From positions 2,162-66,161 of the forward strand of contig VGOO01000001.1 in assembly GCA_016875925.1 (NCBI GenBank): a stretch of 64,000 nt of DNA, read 5' to 3'. Positions 16,282 to 51,224 of this stretch are shown here, piece by piece. This DNA is from Chloroflexota bacterium (GTDB taxonomy: Bacteria; Chloroflexota; Dehalococcoidia; GIF9; UBA5629). Numbering within the stretch: the stretch's first letter is position 1; every line of letters starts with the position of its first letter. The notes beneath the pieces are model-generated. The model had not been told where the DNA came from. It saw only the letters and a list, made by a program, of their open reading frames with translations, and searched no databases. Made by a program: the position numbers and the translations under genes.

Positions 16282-17115
16282 ATGGCTCCGCTGATAACGC
16301 TGACCACTGATTTTGGCAATAGCGATGCCTACGTGGCCAGCATGAAGGGAGTCATACTCAGCATAAATCCACAGGTCTCAATCGTTGACATCAGCCATGC
16401 AATCGAGCCACAGAATATCCTGCAGGCTGCGTACATCATCAGTACCACCCACAGCTATTTCCCCAGAGGAACCGTCCACGTTGTAGTGGTTGACCCAGGA
16501 GTAGGCAGCCAGCGAAAACTAGTCATCCTCAAAACCCACTCCGCCTTCTTCCTGGCGCCGGACAATGGAGTGCTGAGCTACATCATCCAAGAGCTAAAGC
16601 CAGCATCGAGTCCTACCACAGATTCGGCAGCAGGACTCCAGCAGATACAGCTACCCAAAGGGGCTGCAGCCGTAGCAATCACAAACCAGCGCTACTGGCG
16701 ATAGCCAACAAGCACCACCTTCCACGGGCGTGATATCCTGGCACCGGTTGCTGCTCACCTATCACTGGGCACGGCTATGGGCAAATTCGGCGAAAGGCTG
16801 AGGGCAATCAACGTCGCTCACCTGCCACAGCCTCACCATGACAGCAAGGGCAACCTGTGTGGACAGATAATTCACATAGACCATTTCGGCAATCTGGTCA
16901 CCAACGTCAGCGGCATTGATTTGTCAACCAAAAGGTTTATCATTGAGATTGCTGGTCAGAAAATAGCAGGGTTAAGCCAGTACTACAGCCAAAAAAATGG
17001 GTTGGTAGCCATAATTGACAGCAATGACTACTTAGAGATAGCGCTCAAAGACGGGAGTGCTGCTGCTTTGCTCGGTAGCAAAGTGGGCGATAAGCTGATA
17101 CTGCGGGAGGAGTGA
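16282..17115 (+). pseudogene. SAM hydroxide adenosyltransferase / chlorinase-fluorinase family (DUF62) gene interrupted by one in-frame TAG (16702-16704)
   Basis: ORFs 16282-16704 and 16777-17115 are in the same frame. Reading through the TAG gives ...NQRYWR*PTSTTFHGRDILAPVAAHLSLG..., which includes the conserved TFHGRD motif of the family. N-terminal ITLTTDFG..D.YV..MKGV is also typical. Confidence 0.8.
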
Positions 17116-24847: not shown

Positions 24848-24967
24848 CCCCCGGCGGTGGCATATTTTCCCAGAGAGCTGCCTCCCCAGTATCGTCTGCG
24901 CTGAGGCATTTCACTTCCGTGTTCGGGATGGGAACGGGTGGTACTACCTCGCTCTAACCACCAGAGG
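24848..24967 (-). rRNA. rrf: 5S ribosomal RNA, stand-alone copy
   Basis: Minus strand reads CCUCUGGUGGUUAGAGCGAGGUAGUACCACCCGUUCCCAUCCCGAACACGGAAGUGAAAUGCCUCAGCGCAGACGAUACUGGGG...CCACCGCCGGGGG. The universal CCGAAC...GAAGUGAAA loop-C/helix-III core is present and the 5' and 3' ends pair (helix I). A T-run follows the 3' end. Confidence 0.92.
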
Positions 24968-44945: not shown

Positions 44946-45048
44946 ATGGGATAAAGCCCTCGGCAGACTGCAATTATACTCTAACCACACCCCACGTTCT
45001 ACAACCCCCAGAAACCTAAAGCACCACAGTCAGCAAAAATTGTACAGC

Positions 45049-45078
45049 TTGACTTTCAAAAATACCGCAACTTATAAT
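45049..45078 (+). promoter_or_regulatory. Near-consensus sigma-70 promoter of the yceD-rpmF operon
   Basis: TTGACT-N18-TATAAT. It lies inside the ORF-track N-terminal extension, which argues for the downstream GTG start of yceD. Confidence 0.6.
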
Positions 45079-45108
45079 GACTCAACTTCACAGAAGGCTT
45101 TCAATAAA

Positions 45109-45582
45109 GTGCGAATAAACGTTGCGCAACTACTCAGAGCACCTATCGGGTCAAGTAGTAGCTACCAAGTCGATGACGCTGTTGGCAAAGAAGGAGCCAG
45201 ACACGTAAAGGGTGAGATAACACTCAGTCGTACTGGGCGCGGTATCATGGTCAAGGCAACAATAACAGCCTACACAACAGATATTTGCAGTCGCTGCCTT
45301 AATCCCGCAGATTACGCACTCAAGTTTGACGTAGCGGAAGAATTTCTCCCCCGTGATGCTGTTTCAGCCGGCATGTTCCGACAAGAAAATCTCGACACCT
45401 CGACTATCATCGACGAAGATAACGTGCTAGATTTAAGTGAAGTCATTCGCCAATACACATTATTAGCCACACCCACCAAGCCGCTCTGTAAACCAGAGTG
45501 CGCCGGGCTCTGTCCTGCCTGTGGCCACGAGCTAAACAATGAACCGTGCGAATGTCCATCCCAGATTAGTGTCAACCGATAG
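45109..45582 (+). CDS. yceD: YceD-family (DUF177) protein
   Basis: The C-terminal C.P.C.GLCP.CG..LN...C.C motif and its position directly upstream of rpmF are family hallmarks. GTG start at 45109 chosen because of the promoter position. Confidence 0.8.
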   Translation: MRINVAQLLRAPIGSSSSYQVDDAVGKEGARHVKGEITLSRTGRGIMVKATITAYTTDICSRCLNPADYALKFDVAEEFLPRDAVSAGMFRQENLDTSTIIDEDNVLDLSEVIRQYTLLATPTKPLCKPECAGLCPACGHELNNEPCECPSQISVNR

Positions 45583-45620: not shown

Positions 45621-45821
45621 ATGGCACCGCTCCCCAAAAAAAAATATCCTAAGGCCAGACAAGGCAAAAGACGTAGCCACCTAGGGGTCAAAGTACCTGC
45701 ACTTGCGAATTGCCCACAGTGCCACAATCCCAAACTACCTCATCGTGTATGTCCCACCTGTGGGAGTTACAATGGACGTGAAGTGATTGAGATAGCTACT
45801 CCCAAGAAAAGCCAGTCTTAA
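45621..45821 (+). CDS. rpmF: 50S ribosomal protein L32
   Basis: MAPLPKKKYPKARQGKRRSH...CP.C......HRVCP.CG.Y. Confidence 0.95.
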   Translation: MAPLPKKKYPKARQGKRRSHLGVKVPALANCPQCHNPKLPHRVCPTCGSYNGREVIEIATPKKSQS

Positions 45822-45916: not shown

Positions 45917-46861
45917 ATGGTTGAAGAAATAAAGGCCGCTTATGTTTTCCCGGGACAAGATTCGCTAACAGTAGGTATGGGCTTGGACCTCTACGTCCAT
46001 TATTCTTCGGCCCGTGAAGTATTTGATGAAGTCGATAAGACTCTAGGCTTCTCGCTATCCCGTCTCTGTTTCGAGGGCCCTGAGGAAGATTTAAGACAGA
46101 CCGCGAACGCTCAGCCTGCAGTAGTAACGACTAGCGTCGCATGCCTTAAGGCGGCCCAAGAAGCCAGCCAGAACGGCCTACCAACTCCCATGTTTGTGGC
46201 TGGCCACGGAGTAGGCGCCTACTCCGCTTTGGTAGCCGCCGAAGTTCTGGGTCTATCTGACGCAGTTCGCCTCGTCCGCGAGAGGGGACGGCTGATGAAC
46301 GAGGCCGGACAGAGAACTCCTGGTGGTATGCTGTCCATGAGTGGGCTGAACGTAGAGACGGTAAGAGATATCTGCCTATCCACTGGTTCAGAGATAGCTT
46401 ACATAGATGCCGCAGACCAGGTCACTATTAGCGGCACACAGGACAGCCTCACGAAGGCAAGAAGACTGGCCCAAATAAAAGGTGCCCGACGCATACTGCC
46501 ACTGAAAGTCACTGGTCCTTTCTATTCTTCGCTGATGGAGCCATCATTGGGGAGATTAAGAAACGCCATTTCGGGATTCACCTTCAACAAGCCAACAGTG
46601 CCTGTCATGGCTAACGTCACAGCACAAGCACTCACAGACCTAGAGGCAATCAAGGAGGAGTTGGTTAGCCAGGTAGTACACACTATCATGTGGCTTCAAA
46701 CCGTCGAAAACATGATTGCCAGAGGCGTTACCACCTTTTTCGAGATGGGCCCTGGAGAGGAACTTTCCAAGGTGATTAAGAGAATCAGCCCGGGAGCCCA
46801 AACATTCAATATCAGCACAGCGCAAACCGTTACTGAAATAACAAGGTGGCGCAAAGGCTAA
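45917..46861 (+). CDS. FabD-like (malonyl-CoA:ACP transacylase fold) protein lacking the catalytic Ser and His
   Basis: Full-length similarity to FabD (FPGQ.S.TVGM, AGH..G.YSALV, DAVRLV..RG..M, FEMGPG), but GHSLG reads GHGVG and PSH reads PFY. Strong SD GAGGAGG upstream. Confidence 0.8.
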   Translation: MVEEIKAAYVFPGQDSLTVGMGLDLYVHYSSAREVFDEVDKTLGFSLSRLCFEGPEEDLRQTANAQPAVVTTSVACLKAAQEASQNGLPTPMFVAGHGVGAYSALVAAEVLGLSDAVRLVRERGRLMNEAGQRTPGGMLSMSGLNVETVRDICLSTGSEIAYIDAADQVTISGTQDSLTKARRLAQIKGARRILPLKVTGPFYSSLMEPSLGRLRNAISGFTFNKPTVPVMANVTAQALTDLEAIKEELVSQVVHTIMWLQTVENMIARGVTTFFEMGPGEELSKVIKRISPGAQTFNISTAQTVTEITRWRKG

Positions 46862-47097: not shown

Positions 47098-47577
47098 ATG
47101 GGAAGCACAGGACTAAGGCGAAAGGCCAGGGTTGTGGCCCTGCAAACACTGTATGAAGCAGATTGCTCCATGCACGCTCCCGAAGCAATCCTGAACCGCT
47201 TGCTTGTAGAGAAAAACCTGCCAAGCGAAGCATCTGACTTTAGCAAGAGACTGGTCTCTGGAGTCCTTCAAAATAAGCAGGAGGTAGATTCCATCATCCA
47301 GTACTTTGCCCCTGCCTTTCCATTAGAACAAATTGCAGTCATCGACAGGAACATCCTGCGCCTTGCCATTTTCGAAATTTTATTCGATAATAATGCTCCG
47401 GTTAAGGTAGCTATCAACGAAGCAGTGGAGTTGGCAAAGAATTACGGCGGAGATGCCTCCTCCAAGTTGGTGAATGGAGTACTAGGCGCAATAGTAGCGA
47501 ACCACACAAAACATGAAAGACTCCGACAGGAAGACAAGAGATATAACATAAAAGGGACTTCACAAGCTAAGGATTAG
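47098..47577 (+). CDS. nusB: Transcription antitermination factor NusB
   Basis: [14 protein letters not shown]..., [21 protein letters not shown] and [11 protein letters not shown]......FVNGVL. Confidence 0.93.
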
Positions 47578-47838
47578 ATGATGGCAACCATTCTGCAACG
47601 TCTTAAAAAGGTCATCTCCGAACAACTCGGGGTAGACGAAGACCCCATTGAGCCATCAGCCTCTTTTGTTGAGGACCTCAACGTCGACCCTGAGGACCTG
47701 GCTGAGCTTATCACAGCAGTAGAAGAACAATTCAGCACACGTGACAGAAAATTAGAGATAGCCGATGAAGACATCGAGGAAATCGTTACCGTGCAGGACC
47801 TTATCGATTGCCTTCATGATTATGGCATAGAAGACTAG
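47578..47838 (+). CDS. Acyl-carrier-protein-like protein lacking the phosphopantetheine-attachment serine
   Basis: 86 aa. Ungapped match to the ACP core (ASFVEDL..D..D..EL..A.EE.F), but the DSL serine is proline: DPE. Confidence 0.8.
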   Translation: MMATILQRLKKVISEQLGVDEDPIEPSASFVEDLNVDPEDLAELITAVEEQFSTRDRKLEIADEDIEEIVTVQDLIDCLHDYGIED

Positions 47839-50800
47839 CCACCCGCTGCAATTTCCCCCTTGTCAGACCTGACCGATTCCATAGCCATCTTATTAAGAAC
47901 GCATTTCAGCGCTTCTTGCCACCCATTACCCATGCACTCAATATCCAGCCTTATCTGACGACTTCTCGCTTTAATTCCATCACCGCAGGCATCAAAGGAT
48001 AGTCTCTTGTCCAATGCTTTTGTTGCAGCGAGATACAACACAATGTTCTTGCCCTCTGTCACAACAGACTCTATTCCCACGCCTGCAGCTAAGAGTCGAA
48101 TTTCGACTATATAAAGCAAATCTCTCAAGTGTTGGGGTATCTTACCAAACCTATCACGCATCTCCCTGATTATTTCCCACACTTGCTCTACTGTCCTAAC
48201 AGCAACCAATCGCTGGTAGAAGGAGATTCTGATACTAGGTAAAGAGATATAATCCTCAGGGATATAGGCAGCTAGAGGTAGATTCGCAACTGGCATTGCT
48301 GGCAGGGCAACTCTTCTTTCCGCCAGGACACCGCGTTCTTGTCGCAATGTTTCCACCGCTTCAGCAAGCAGCCGACAATAGAGATCAAAACCAACAGTTG
48401 CGATATGACCACTCTGTTCTACCCCCAGCAGATTCCCAGCACCACGTATCTCAAGATCCCGCATTGCAATTCCGAATCCAGCACCCAGCTCCGCAGCCTC
48501 AGATATGGTTCTCAACCGTTTCCGAGCCTCAAGAGTCAATTGCTTACCTCTATCAAACAAGAAATAGGCATGCGCATGGTTACTGCCACGCCCTACGCGT
48601 CCACGCAGTTGATAGAGCTGGGCCAAGCCGAGTTTATCTGCCTGGTCAACAACCAACGTGTTCACATTAGGCATATCTAACCCCGATTCGATAATCGTCG
48701 TAGTAACCAAGACATCGTTCCGGCGGCTACTGAATTCCGCCATCACTTCAGCCAACTTTTTTTCATCCATTTGCCCGTGTGCTACTGATACCCCTGCTTC
48801 AGGCACCAAGATTTTCAGTTTATTAGCAACCGCAGCGATGCTCTGGACTCGGTTGTGAACATAAAAGACCTGGCCACTGCGTTCCAACTCTCTCAAAATC
48901 GCCCCGCGAACCAGCTTGTCATCGTAAACACCAACATGAGTTTTGATTGGCAGTCTCTCCTCCGGCGGTGTCTCAATGGTACTCATGTCCCGAATCCCAG
49001 CTAAAGACATATGAAGAGTTCTTGGGATAGGTGTCGCACTTAAAGTTAGAACATCTACCTCCTGTCTCAATTTCCTAAAATGCTCTTTGTGTACCACACC
49101 AAAACGTTGCTCCTCATCTATTATCACCAGGCCAAGATCCTTGAACCTGACATCCTTCTGTAATAGACGATGAGTGCCAATACAAATATCGATCATTCCT
49201 ACAGCCAGGCCAGCGATTATATCTGCTTGCTCTTTTTCGGTGCAAAAGCGACTCAGCATCGCCAGACGCACCGGAAAGGCTTGAAGCCTTTCACCAAATG
49301 TGAAGAGATGCTGCTGCGCCAGCACCGTAGTCGGCACGAGAAAAGCCACCTGCTTGCCATCCATTATTGCTTTGAAGGCAGCGCGAAGCGCCACTTCAGT
49401 TTTACCATAACCCACATCGCCACATATCAGTCTGTCCATGGGCCTTGGCTTCTCCATGTCAGCCTTCACAGCTTGCACAGCTTCCAGTTGGTCAGAAGTC
49501 TCCACATATGGAAAGGAGGATTCCAGCTCTTGCTGCCACAGGTTATCGGCAGAAAAACCGAAGCCCTCTGTCACCTCTCTTCTGGCATAAAGATTTAGAA
49601 GCTCCTCAGCCATATTTGCTGCTGCTTCCTTAACTCGCTGCTTTGCACGTGCCCATTCCTGGGTTCCTAAACGGCTCAGCGCAGGTACCCGGTCATCAGC
49701 ACCCACATACCGGCCGACACGGTCGACCTGCTCCGTGGGTACATACAGCTTATCGCCAAGAGCATATTCCAGAACAAGATATTCCCTCTCCACACCCTCC
49801 GTAGGCATTCTAGTCAATCCCAAGAATTGGGCAATACCATGCTCAACATGAACAACGTAATCACCGGGCAGCAAATCAGAAATAAACCTGTGATAGCGGA
49901 CCGGCCTCTTGCGAGGCAAGCGTCTCTCCTTCACCAAGCCGAAAATTTCTTTATCGGTAAGCAAGGTTAAACTATCCTTGATAGACCAGCCCTCAGCCAT
50001 TGACCCTTGAACAATTGTCACGGATTTCTGAGAAGGGATACGCTCTATAGAAGATACGTGTTGAACTAAAACATCCTCGTCCTGAAGCAGCTCGGCAAGC
50101 CGCTTTGCCTGCTGGCTGACTATGACAACTCGACGATTCTCATTTAGCATCACCCTTAGACCAGCCATAAAATTGTCTAGCCTGCCCCCATAGCCGGGCG
50201 CAGGTTTTAGAGGCAGAGATGCATAGCTTGTATCTCCAGACCCTTGGACATCCCATGAGCACAGCATTAGACGTCGCTCAAATCTCCGAAGCCCGGTCTC
50301 GAAATCAGCCAAGATAGAGGAGCAGACCAGACAAGAGCCACCCTGCTCCCGATGGAATTCCTCTAGCTCACTTTCCAGCTTGGTAATAACAGCCCGCATC
50401 TCATCAAGATCATCTGTGACTAAAAGAGAATTCCCAGGCAAATAACCAAGGATGGTGCTGGTGCTCTGCCATATGCCCATCTCACAAACCGGCACTATAG
50501 TTACCGATGCTACCAATGCTGACGAGCGTTGCGTCTGCGGGTCAAACAGCCTGATGCTTTCTATCTGATTCCCCGAAAACTCAATCCTGGCAGGCAAGTC
50601 ATTGTTCGGAGAAAAAATATCGACTATGCCACCGCGTCGGCCCATTGTCCCAGGCACTTCAACTATGTTTTCCAACTCATAGCCCATATCCTGCCAGCGC
50701 CTTATTAGCTGCGCCGGCTCAAGAGCCATTCTCACCTTGAGGTCGTGAGAGGCTGCAACAAAGCCAGCTCTAGGCAACGTCTTGCTGACTGCTGCTAAGG

Positions 50801-51224
50801 CCGAACAAACCACCAACGGAGGCCGGTCATCACCAAAAGAACCCACTTGTGAAAGAGCAGAAAGTGCCTGCAACCTTTCGGAGGTGACAACAGGGTCATC
50901 GGTCACACTATCTTCAGCCAAGAACTCAGTTTCGGGGAAAAAATGCAGCGGCAATTGACTGGGGCACCAGGCCTGTAGCTGTTCAAAAAGTCTCCTTGCC
51001 TCCTCAGACTGTGCAGTAACCACCAGAAGCGGCAAGCCAAGCTCCTGATAAAGAGCAGCTAGCACATAAGGACGCGCTGGGTCAGGCACCAGCAGCCTAC
51101 TCCCGCCAGCCCTCCTTTCGAGCAACATGGCCTTCAGTCGATTGAATTCAGGCAACCCTCTTACCAAAGAAGTTAAACAAGAAAGGTCCATCGCAAACAC
51201 CCACAGGGCTAGCCACAACCCCAT
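47835..51224 (-). CDS. mfd: Transcription-repair coupling factor Mfd
   Basis: 1129 aa. [27 protein letters not shown], the CarD-like domain GDYVVH..HGI and a TRCF C-terminal domain. An alternative ATG start lies at 51191. Confidence 0.95.

Follow-up and report, generated by a model that had tools for sequence, protein, structure and literature searches.

What is left for an acyl carrier protein (ACP) to do once it has lost the residue that holds its cofactor? The question is raised by a small gene next to nusB in the window (the whole 64 kb stretch of Dehalococcoidia DNA analysed here). Its product, hereafter ACP2, lacks the attachment Ser of the D-S-L motif and carries Pro instead. The equivalent residue of the E. 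coli protein, Ser36, is the attachment site of 4'-phosphopantetheine. The FabD-like gene of the same block ends 717 bp upstream of ACP2, and its product has lost both Ser92 and His201 of the FabD catalytic dyad. A previous sequence-only reading had noticed the Ser-less FabD-like gene at about this distance and had proposed that the two genes encode a co-evolved, catalytically dead pair. The results below show that both proteins are retained under strong selection; they probably now do something other than fatty acid synthesis. The features of the locus are listed in Table 1.

Table 1. Features of the ACP2 locus, in coordinates of the window
Feature	Coordinates	Strand	Remarks
yceD (DUF177)	45040..45582	+	First gene of the conserved block
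rpmF (ribosomal protein L32)	45621..45821	+	95 bp from the FabD-like gene
FabD-like protein, 314 aa	45917..46861	+	Ser92 replaced by Gly, His201 by Tyr
nusB	47098..47577	+	nusB-acp pair conserved across Chloroflexota
ACP2 (ACP fold without the cofactor serine)	47581..47838	+	85 aa; 86 aa if the start is ATG 47578
Pro38 codon CCT	47689..47691	+	Column of E. coli Ser36, N-terminus of helix II
5-residue insertion T-R-D-R-K	47737..47751	+	Between helices II and III
C-terminal tail H-D-Y-G-I-E-D	47815..47835	+	Conserved
mfd	47835..51224	-	Convergent with ACP2; conserved 3' boundary of the block

Fold and gene structure of ACP2

ACP2 passes the Pfam PP-binding profile PF00550 (39 bits, cut-off 20.8) and the NCBIfam subfamily profile NF002148 (74.5 bits, cut-off 71). 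It scores under the equivalog cut-offs of TIGR00517 (62.2 versus 70.45) and NF002149 (72.5 versus 106). Its alignment with E. coli ACP in the PDB (E = 1.6e-15) has a gapless core, as had been read from the letters alone, and gives 'dlnvdPedlael' over the DSL region. The AlphaFold model, of moderate confidence (pLDDT 69), predicts four helices (residues 3-17, 38-52, 63-68 and 72-81), the second of which begins at Pro38. The best Foldseek matches of this model are ACPs, with target-normalised TM-scores of 0.76-0.87 (about 0.8 to E. coli ACP) and 48-51% identity to the E. coli protein over the Foldseek alignments. ACP2 is a true ACP-fold protein. Homology searches gathered 640 homologues, and column counts were taken from the 120 closest relatives. 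The acidic residues of helix II, previously described as preserved, are indeed kept (E. coli numbering): Asp35 in 102/120, Asp38 in 118/120 and both Glu41 and Glu47 in all 120.

The overall length is not preserved, contrary to what had been stated. ACP2 exceeds E. coli ACP by about 8 residues, as a result of the 5-residue insertion and of the C-terminal tail. The consensus of the insertion in the ACP2 family is T-P-x-R-K, followed by an invariant Leu. In the tail, Asp81 is invariant while Tyr82 and Gly83 are found in 115 and 118 of the 120 relatives respectively. The 86-codon reading frame reported at this place does exist, but the second ATG (47581) is the likelier start, with AGGA 7 nt upstream and homologues that are 85 aa long and begin with MATIL. 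The stop codon TAG of nusB (47575-47577) directly abuts the first ATG (47578). This TAGATG junction, on which the proposed tight coupling to nusB was based, is peculiar to this genome; relatives have 12-170 nt between the two genes, which are nevertheless always adjacent. At the other end, the stop codons of ACP2 and mfd overlap in CTAG (47835-47838).

Conservation of ACP2 and stepwise changes of the locus

The replacement of Ser36 by Pro is confirmed by the codon itself and by the corresponding column, which among the 120 relatives contains Pro in 98, Ala in 10, Leu and Ser in 5 each, and Asn and Gln once each. Since it is mostly Pro, some new constraint acts on this site, which is not drifting freely. 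Nine columns are invariant, including Ser27, Asp31, Glu41, Glu47 and Phe50 (E. coli numbering). The inserted loop also stands out, with Arg57 in 105/120 and Lys58 in 115/120, while it is variable in the long ACPs that retain DSL. The gene has neither frameshifts nor stop codons. Its median dN/dS is 0.09 (0.046 against the closest relative, L008), values to be read with synonymous sites mostly saturated. Purifying selection on the gene is strong. The loss of the serine is real and has been maintained in an abundant clade; ACP2 is no pseudogene. A few relatives read DSE, with Ser at column 36, apparently on contigs that carry a dyad-less FabD-like gene. As these ACPs accompany dyad-less FabD-like proteins, their Ser is most simply seen as a change from Pro in a position where serine is no longer required.

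Other changes concern residues 59 and 68, which we take to line the acyl-chain pocket in the E. coli acyl-ACP structures. Canonical ACP groups have Ala at both positions in 96-100% of sequences. In the serine-less clade, position 59 is Ile (13), Thr (11) or Met (1) and position 68 is Leu (23), Ala (2) or Ile (1). V40 is changed to A and M44 to T. Bulkier residues at 59 and 68 are already present in the ACP2 of the sister clade.

The nusB and acp genes are adjacent in 80 loci across Chloroflexota, and by its position ACP2 is orthologous to the nusB-linked housekeeping acpP of this phylum. The linkage to nusB is ancestral, found where the ACP is canonical, and does not mark the serine-less state. 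Comparison of these loci reveals a graded series. Chloroflexota outside Dehalococcoidia have a short canonical ACP at this position. Other Dehalococcoidia have a long ACP, with the 5-residue loop insertion and a GIED tail, that retains DSL. In the sister clade of the window's clade the order is yceD-rpmF-ACP1-fabF-acpS-fabK-fabD-nusB-ACP2-mfd; ACP1 is canonical and FabD active, and the motif of ACP2 is degenerate (DSS, ASA, DWD). In the window's clade the locus has lost the ACP1-fabF-acpS-fabK module; the serine of ACP2 is gone, as are Ser92 and His201 of FabD.

The dyad is intact in all 32 loci with a DSL ACP where FabD was recovered. Among the 27 serine-less-ACP loci with a near full-length FabD, both residues are replaced in 24. 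Two loci (L006 and L007) have lost Ser92 alone beside a serine-less ACP, and two others (L004 and L005) combine a serine-less ACP with an intact dyad, the fab module being absent from the locus. A FabD tree places the serine-less clade beside the two-ACP clade as its sister; within the serine-less clade, members whose dyad is intact or half-intact branch at the base. Because these basal members pair a serine-less ACP with a FabD that is intact or has lost only Ser92, the two losses were not simultaneous: judging from the tree and the motifs, that of the ACP2 serine appears to have preceded FabD inactivation. The pair proposed earlier is supported in part, by the joint loss in most loci and by strong purifying selection on both genes. 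It did not arise in one step, and one of its members does not look simply dead.

The FabD-like neighbour and competing explanations

The FabD-like protein passes TIGR00128 (273 bits, cut-off 260.9), and its best PDB matches are FabD (E = 1e-57), human MCAT being found at E = 6.5e-34. Its GHGVGA corresponds to GHSLGE of FabD, and its PFYS to (P/A)(S/F)H(C/S). The residues found at positions 92 and 201 in its family are Asp/Asn (77), Gly/Tyr (21), Asp/Tyr (10), Gly/His (6), Ser/His (5) and Gly/Asn (1). Further substitutions in the pocket of the window protein are G12D, E95A, N162D, S163A and G165D. Four of these positions shifted stepwise to new residues conserved in the family: Glu or Asp at 12 in 110/120, Asp162 in 114/120, Ala163 in 113/120 and Asp165 in 115/120. 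Arg117, the residue of FabD that binds the malonyl carboxylate, is kept in 120/120 and Gln11 in 116/120. Basic residues are also kept at positions 189 (Arg or Lys) and 190 (Arg) in all 120 relatives, at 286 (Lys) in 116 and at 287 (Arg) in 112; these four positions presumably form the ACP-docking patch of E. coli FabD. The median dN/dS is 0.07, and indels are absent, all 16 genes compared having exactly 314 codons. These alignments suggest a pocket rebuilt around newly conserved residues rather than one that is simply dead.

In about half of the relatives a radical SAM gene, resembling activating enzymes, lies between the FabD-like gene and nusB. It was rejected as a requirement for ACP2 and the FabD-like protein: only fragments occur in other members and none in the window.

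We find it reasonably probable that ACP2 is a housekeeping-ACP orthologue which has become permanently cofactor-free in one abundant Dehalococcoidia clade and is no longer an acyl carrier. That the protein is functional, cofactor-free and not a carrier is, taken alone, highly likely. The long ACP, with its insertion and tail, would have arisen in Dehalococcoidia while still a true carrier. The ACP1-fabF-acpS-fabK(-fabD) module may then have taken over fatty acid synthesis, releasing ACP2 from its need for the cofactor. In the window's clade the module would subsequently have been deleted from the locus, FabD losing Ser92 and later His201. ACP2 would now act by protein-protein docking alone, through helix II, the new loop and the tail. 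Its most likely retained partner may be the adjacent FabD-like protein, which keeps the presumed docking residues and Arg117 while its catalytic pocket has been rebuilt; that the two do bind is a tentative proposal that falls just short of an even chance. Together they could form a non-enzymatic module of a regulatory or assembly-related nature, in line with the protein-protein interaction role suggested earlier.

The most concrete candidate for such a role would be ribosome or rRNA biogenesis, given the yceD, rpmF and nusB partners and the mitochondrial precedents discussed below; we hold a ribosome-related role to be rather unlikely. The nusB-acp and yceD-rpmF-fab linkages are an ancestral operon structure. 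Since they exist with canonical ACPs too, gene context alone is no argument for this role. No sign of RNA binding was seen in the net charge or pI of the FabD-like protein, which is slightly less acidic than a typical FabD; this shift is small and shared by the active FabD enzymes of the sister clade and so gives no such sign. The fullest version of the explanation, namely that this widespread clade of free-living, anaerobic Dehalococcoidia has wholly abandoned type II fatty acid synthesis and kept ACP2 and the FabD-like protein as an indispensable non-metabolic pair, most plausibly for ribosome or rRNA biogenesis, is improbable as a whole.

The strongest alternative, which is possible though we doubt it, is that fatty acid synthesis goes on from genes elsewhere in the genome, which would encode a canonical ACP, AcpS, ketosynthases and another, active FabD, with ACP2 and the FabD-like protein being spare paralogue-like copies with a side function. 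The sole difference from our preferred explanation is that these genomes would keep fatty acid synthesis. A candidate for such a second system is the kind of cluster seen in a related genome, where fab genes, including a separate fabD, have been relocated (L091, ACP-KAS-KAS-fabK-fabD-ECH); the ACP of this cluster is ACP1-like and its FabD branches beside the two clades. The intact dyads found without the module in L004 and L005 also hint that the module was lost or moved while FabD was active. However, L091 could not be tied to the serine-less clade, its flanks having no housekeeping genes in common with any of the collected loci. No fab gene was found in the window or in about 12 kb of additional flanking DNA, and in no serine-less locus is fabF, fabG, acpS or fabK present within 10 kb. 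A search with the L032 FabF gave none on the known serine-less-ACP2 contigs among the matches listed, all of which show at least 70% identity, whereas a FabF of the serine-less clade would be expected at about 65%; this result weighs neither for nor against the alternative. Decay of the dyad in about 20 species-level genomes is what would be expected if malonyl-ACP were not needed.

It is unlikely that the rebuilt and more acidic pocket of the FabD-like protein instead binds a new ligand or catalyses a new reaction, with ACP2 as a protein cofactor or substrate, perhaps inserting a basic side chain of the R-K loop in the place formerly occupied by the phosphopantetheine arm. The convergence of the pocket substitutions (those at 12, 162, 163 and 165, with Asp92 in most members), the retention of Arg117 and the conservation of Arg57 and Lys58 in the ACP2 loop would fit such a function. 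Against it, the family has no single catalytic set: position 92 is Asp in 87 members and Gly in 28, including that of the window, and position 201 is Asn, Tyr or His.

Continued carrier activity of ACP2 through a non-canonical residue is very unlikely. The candidates are a Ser at column 37 (DPS or DAS motifs, 41/120), the invariant Ser27, and Ser53, the Ser of F-S-T (118/120). Column 37 is Glu in the window protein and Pro in 50 relatives, and Ser27 is equally conserved, and unmodified, in canonical ACPs. AcpS modifies the serine with which helix II begins (AcpS-ACP complexes, e.g. PDB 1F80), and its gene is absent near every serine-less locus. Finally, although Pro (CCN) and Ser (TCN) codons are one base apart, the idea that TCT was misread or misassembled as the proline codon, or that the gene is a functionless decaying relic, is scarcely conceivable for a protein found in exact form on 5 contigs (8 for the 85-aa gene call), with the proline shared by independent relatives from many samples, an unbroken reading frame and a dN/dS of about 0.05-0.1.

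Significance and comparison with known systems

An ACP is usually held to be useless without its phosphopantetheine arm, and to our knowledge clear exceptions come only from apicomplexan mitochondria. Here the genes of ACP2 and the FabD-like protein rank with the best conserved of the locus in many species, despite the loss of the attachment site and of the dyad. They would represent a natural case of separation of function, in which a selectable role of ACP and FabD is independent of fatty acid synthesis and could be studied free of lipid metabolism. Public records label the pair 'acyl carrier protein' and 'ACP S-malonyltransferase', which amounts to a systematic annotation error; in metabolic reconstructions such names would wrongly credit these Dehalococcoidia with steps of fatty acid synthesis. 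The locus thereby raises the question of fatty acid auxotrophy in these organisms. If the fullest version of the explanation were true, the pair would parallel in bacteria what mitochondrial ACP and MCAT do in ribosome assembly, and might even represent an evolutionary forerunner of it; a second function of ACP and FabD could then outlive fatty acid synthesis itself. Literature searches retrieved only the Plasmodium and MCAT precedents described below, and no report that Dehalococcoidia have serine-less ACPs or have lost fatty acid synthesis.

ACP2 resembles the AcpP of E. coli and B. subtilis in its four-helix fold, in the acidic helix II (Asp35, Asp38, Glu41, Glu47) and in its position in a yceD-rpmF-fab block. 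It differs from them by the absence of the attachment serine, the bulky residues replacing A59 and A68, the loop insertion and the D-Y-G-I-E-D tail. In addition, fabF, fabG and acpS are not nearby, and its score lies under the TIGR00517 equivalog cut-off.

One of the two closest precedents is the mitochondrial ACP (mACP) of P. falciparum, in which Ser is replaced by Phe and which works without the cofactor (PMC8547962). Beyond Apicomplexa and Vitrella, the same study came across no ACP lacking the serine (PMC8547962). In mACP the cofactor serine was lost together with the local fatty acid synthesis pathway and the phosphopantetheinyl transferase, and the protein is essential through protein-protein binding; for ACP2, the loss of the fab module and of acpS is seen at the locus only. 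In both cases a second, canonical ACP exists in the lineage, the apicoplast ACP in Plasmodium and ACP1 in the sister clade here. However, mACP is eukaryotic and organellar and its partner is the LYR protein Isd11 (Isd11-Nfs1). We know of no LYR proteins in bacteria. The replacing residues also differ: Phe is part of the interface in mACP, while in ACP2 Pro stands at the helix cap. The likeness is best regarded as a functional analogy and not as a sign that the serine-less state was inherited in common.

Human MCAT, a FabD homologue, is an assembly factor of the mitoribosome small subunit (PMC9892005; PDB 8CSP). It is a case of a FabD fold with a structural role in ribosome biogenesis, apart from malonyl transfer, and is a sequence relative of the FabD-like protein, whose gene is flanked by rpmF and nusB. 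MCAT itself has retained the catalytic residues and continues to work in fatty acid synthesis.

Cofactor-independent roles are also attributed to E. coli ACP, which binds MukB, YchM and IscS without acting as a carrier and whose apo form reportedly supports the synthesis of membrane-derived oligosaccharides. The ACP complexes 9gm6 and 3ny7 are among the PDB and Foldseek matches of ACP2. The likeness would lie in an ACP that serves for docking, as an acidic subunit, and not for carriage. The E. coli molecule is at the same time the essential carrier, whereas in ACP2 the carrier function has been genetically removed.

An ACP-fold protein without the attachment serine

The nusB-linked ACP-fold protein (ACP2) had been read as ACP-like, with proline in place of the serine that carries 4'-phosphopantetheine (Ser36; E. 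coli numbering throughout). This is borne out by its match to the Pfam PP-binding profile PF00550 (39 bits, cut-off 20.8), by alignment with E. coli ACP, its best match among solved structures (E = 1.6e-15; the motif lies in dlnvdPedlael), and by the codon itself (see table). ACP2 scores above the cut-off of the NCBIfam ACP subfamily NF002148 (74.5 vs 71) and below that of the strict equivalog TIGR00517 (62.2 vs 70.45). A four-helix ACP with helix II starting at the motif proline is predicted by a family-alignment AlphaFold model (pLDDT 69), whose top Foldseek matches are ACPs (target-normalised TM-score about 0.8). The acidic residues of helix II are retained, as claimed in the sequence-only reading. 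The length is not: ACP2 exceeds E. coli ACP by about 8 residues, having 5 residues inserted after helix II and a tail at the C-terminus. The ATG at 47581 is the likelier start and gives 85 aa, as in homologues. Fold and sequence place ACP2 in the ACP superfamily, but it lacks the defining serine, and the name "acyl carrier protein" is unfit for it in a functional sense. Its stop codon overlaps that of the convergent mfd inside a CTAG palindrome.

Coordinates of features in the window
Feature	Position	Strand	Remark
ACP2 ORF	47578..47838	+	86 aa
Pro in the Ser36 column of ACP2	47689-47691	+	codon CCT
Overlapping ACP2 and mfd stop codons	47835-47838		palindrome CTAG
FabD-like gene	45917..46861	+	FabD equivalog 273 vs cut-off 260.9
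DUF62 gene	16282-17115	+	SAM hydroxide adenosyltransferase
In-frame TAG of the DUF62 gene	16702-16704	+	NQRYWR*PTSTTFHGRD
5S rRNA gene, alone	24849-24965	-	no 23S or 16S gene nearby

A single TAG interrupts the DUF62 gene, with the C-terminal domain following in the same frame; a sequencing error, recent pseudogene formation or recoding could account for it. No tRNA gene was found in the whole 64 kb window. The nearest relative (94-96% protein identity) and exact-match contigs (both among L008-L010, L093 and L094) bear sample names of deep-water lake casts (K_DeepCast_250m, M_DeepCast_200m) or originate from JGI 3300020084 and 3300020074, and the window probably derives from an anoxic freshwater Dehalococcoidia population.

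The locus across Chloroflexota

The block M20 peptidase(-)/yceD/rpmF/FabD-like/nusB/ACP/mfd(-) is present in every relative examined, including the complete 1.76 Mb genome CP070642.1. There a methyltransferase gene, not mfd, comes next after ACP2 (L001, 11898-12803), followed by a hot-dog-fold pair (MaoC dehydratase and FAS1_DH region) resembling split hydratase/dehydratase subunits.

Scanning one genome per GTDB species with ACP2 yielded 80 loci that form a graded series of four groups. In group (i), from other Chloroflexota, the order is yceD-rpmF-...-nusB-acpP and the ACP is canonical, at about 78 aa (DLNADSLDLVEL). It follows that nusB and acp were paired ancestrally and that, by position, the housekeeping acpP is orthologous to ACP2 of the window. 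Group (ii), from other Dehalococcoidia (L027-L031, L033-L037), encodes a long ACP with the insertion and a GIED tail that keeps DSL, the canonical motif. Where upstream sequence was recovered the order is fabD(active)-fabG-nusB-acp; fabG gave no match in L027 and only fragments in L028. The serine is kept in 76 of 78 long-form relatives from a 50%-identity representative library. Group (iii), the sister clade (L032, L088/L089, L090, L092), carries yceD-rpmF-ACP1-fabF-acpS-fabK-fabD-nusB-ACP2-mfd (Pfam), where the second ACP, ACP1, is canonical (DSL) and FabD intact, and ACP2 already has a degenerate motif (DSS, DSS, ASA, DWD). Group (iv), the window's clade (L001-L026, about 20 species), is sister to group (iii) in the FabD tree. 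The serine column of its ACP2 is occupied by P, A or G, and ACP1-fabF-acpS-fabK are absent between rpmF and fabD (a spacing of 95 bp in the window). No fabF, fabG, acpS or fabK lies within 10 kb in the L001-L026 loci, and Pfam annotation of the whole window plus about 12 kb of extra contig flank revealed housekeeping genes only.

Two intermediate arrangements indicate the order of events. A serine-less ACP2 (DPS) stands beside a FabD with intact Ser92-His201 dyad in L004/L005, and a DPA motif beside a FabD without Ser but with His in L006, so that the ACP2 serine was lost first and FabD decayed afterwards. This decay across about 20 species, together with the clean deletion of the ACP1-fabF-acpS-fabK module, makes it fairly probable that fatty acid synthesis is truly absent from these organisms. 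That it is retained elsewhere in the genome is a distinctly less probable alternative, and one compatible with the core claim on ACP2.

In a related genome (L091, 4473-10019) a fab cluster comprises an ACP1-like ACP, two ketosynthases, fabK, fabD and an enoyl-CoA hydratase-family gene, without yceD, rpmF or nusB; its FabD branches beside the two clades. It would seem from this that ACP1-fabF-fabK-fabD travel together as one module. In the basal serine-less locus L006 (212-1051), a gene for DegV (FakB-type, fatty-acid-binding) lies immediately upstream of yceD, which would fit uptake of external fatty acids. A 383 aa radical SAM protein (L010, 8396-9547) is encoded between FabD-like and nusB, the place of fabG in other Dehalococcoidia, and likewise in L009, L017, L018, L020, L022-L024 and L026. 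The L010 protein resembles activating enzymes, the closest model being of AmmeMemoRadiSam type, far below cut-off. Remnants of 43-78 aa occur in L002, L003, L011, L012, L015 and L016, and none in the window.

The FabD-like neighbour

The neighbouring FabD-like protein, previously described as Ser-less, indeed reads GHGVGA for the FabD GHSLGE, and PFYS at the FabD His motif, in both MAFFT and HMMER alignments. Among its 120 closest relatives (at least 70% identity), position 92 is D in 87, G in 28 and S in 5, and position 201 is N in 78, Y in 31 and H in 11 (combinations DN 77, GY 21, DY 10, GH 6, SH 5, GN 1). Arg117 is invariant and Gln11 present in 116/120. Also kept are Arg189 (119/120), Arg190 (120/120), Lys286 (116/120) and Arg287 (112/120), at positions that we take to be the ACP-docking residues of E. 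coli FabD. Median dN/dS is 0.07, and each of the 16 genes compared has exactly 314 codons.

Changes in the pocket have a direction, are conserved (G12 to E/D, E95 to T/A/I, N162 to D, S163 to A, G165 to D) and accrue stepwise, from the canonical L032 through L004 (E12, dyad intact) and L006 (Ser lost) to GH and then GY/DN. The former active site appears rebuilt rather than merely broken: acidic residues have become newly conserved there (E/D12, D92 in most members, D162, D165) and Arg117 is kept. These substitutions hint that a ligand or interface has been newly acquired; gain of a ligand-binding or catalytic function by the rebuilt pocket is, as an explanation, unlikely.

Conservation of ACP2 and its possible role

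A protein search with ACP2 returned 640 relatives. The best 120 of these (67-100% identity, mostly 85 aa) all derive from metagenome assemblies of Chloroflexota/Dehalococcoidia, sampled at many sites. In this alignment the serine column is P98, A10, L5, S5, N1, Q1 and the next P50, S41, E26, while Ser27, Asp31, Asn33, Glu41, Glu47, Phe50, Asp(67), Leu72 and Asp(74) are invariant and the insertion T-P-x-R-K-L and tail D-x-L-H-D-Y-G-I-E-D near-invariant. Over 21 clade genes the median pairwise dN/dS is 0.09, falling to 0.046 in comparison with the nearest relative; most pairs are saturated at synonymous sites. Together with the conserved columns around a variable one, this indicates strong purifying selection on a protein that does not require the attachment serine. 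The few relatives with Ser in that column (DSE) apparently lie on contigs bearing dyad-less FabD-like proteins, which fits a Pro-to-Ser change where the serine is no longer needed.

Columns 59 and 68, presumably lining the pocket of E. coli acyl-ACP structures, are Ala in all canonical ACP groups. They are I/T and L in the serine-less clade and V/T/A and L/I/V in sister-clade ACP2; V40 to A and M44 to T are further ACP2-specific changes. Judged from sequence, the replacements at columns 59 and 68 would be a further sign that ACP2 ceased to be a carrier. Its modification at a non-canonical residue is very improbable. A sequencing error is ruled out by the conserved family, and error or a decaying relic can together be given negligible weight.

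On the best supported reading, ACP2 has the ACP fold but is permanently without cofactor, and it would act by docking, not carrying. Its most likely partner would be the adjacent FabD-like protein, as suggested by the acidic helix II of the one and the retained basic residues of the other. Both folds have documented roles in ribosome assembly in mitochondria. Mitochondrial ACP belongs to a module that assembles the large subunit. Human MCAT, of the FabD fold, is an assembly factor of the mitoribosome small subunit (PMC9892005). By analogy with these roles, and with both genes still embedded among yceD, rpmF and nusB, ribosome or rRNA biogenesis may be the most concrete lead to a cellular role; it is a weak one, since the genes were already arranged in this way ancestrally and an analysis of charge on the FabD-like protein is not decisive.

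We found no description of a bacterial serine-less ACP in the literature, and one should surprise specialists. The authors of a study of Plasmodium found none outside Apicomplexa and Vitrella (PMC8547962). Functionally, the closest analogue of ACP2 is the mitochondrial ACP of Plasmodium, in which Phe replaces Ser; that protein functions without cofactor, the local pathway having been lost (PMC8547962).
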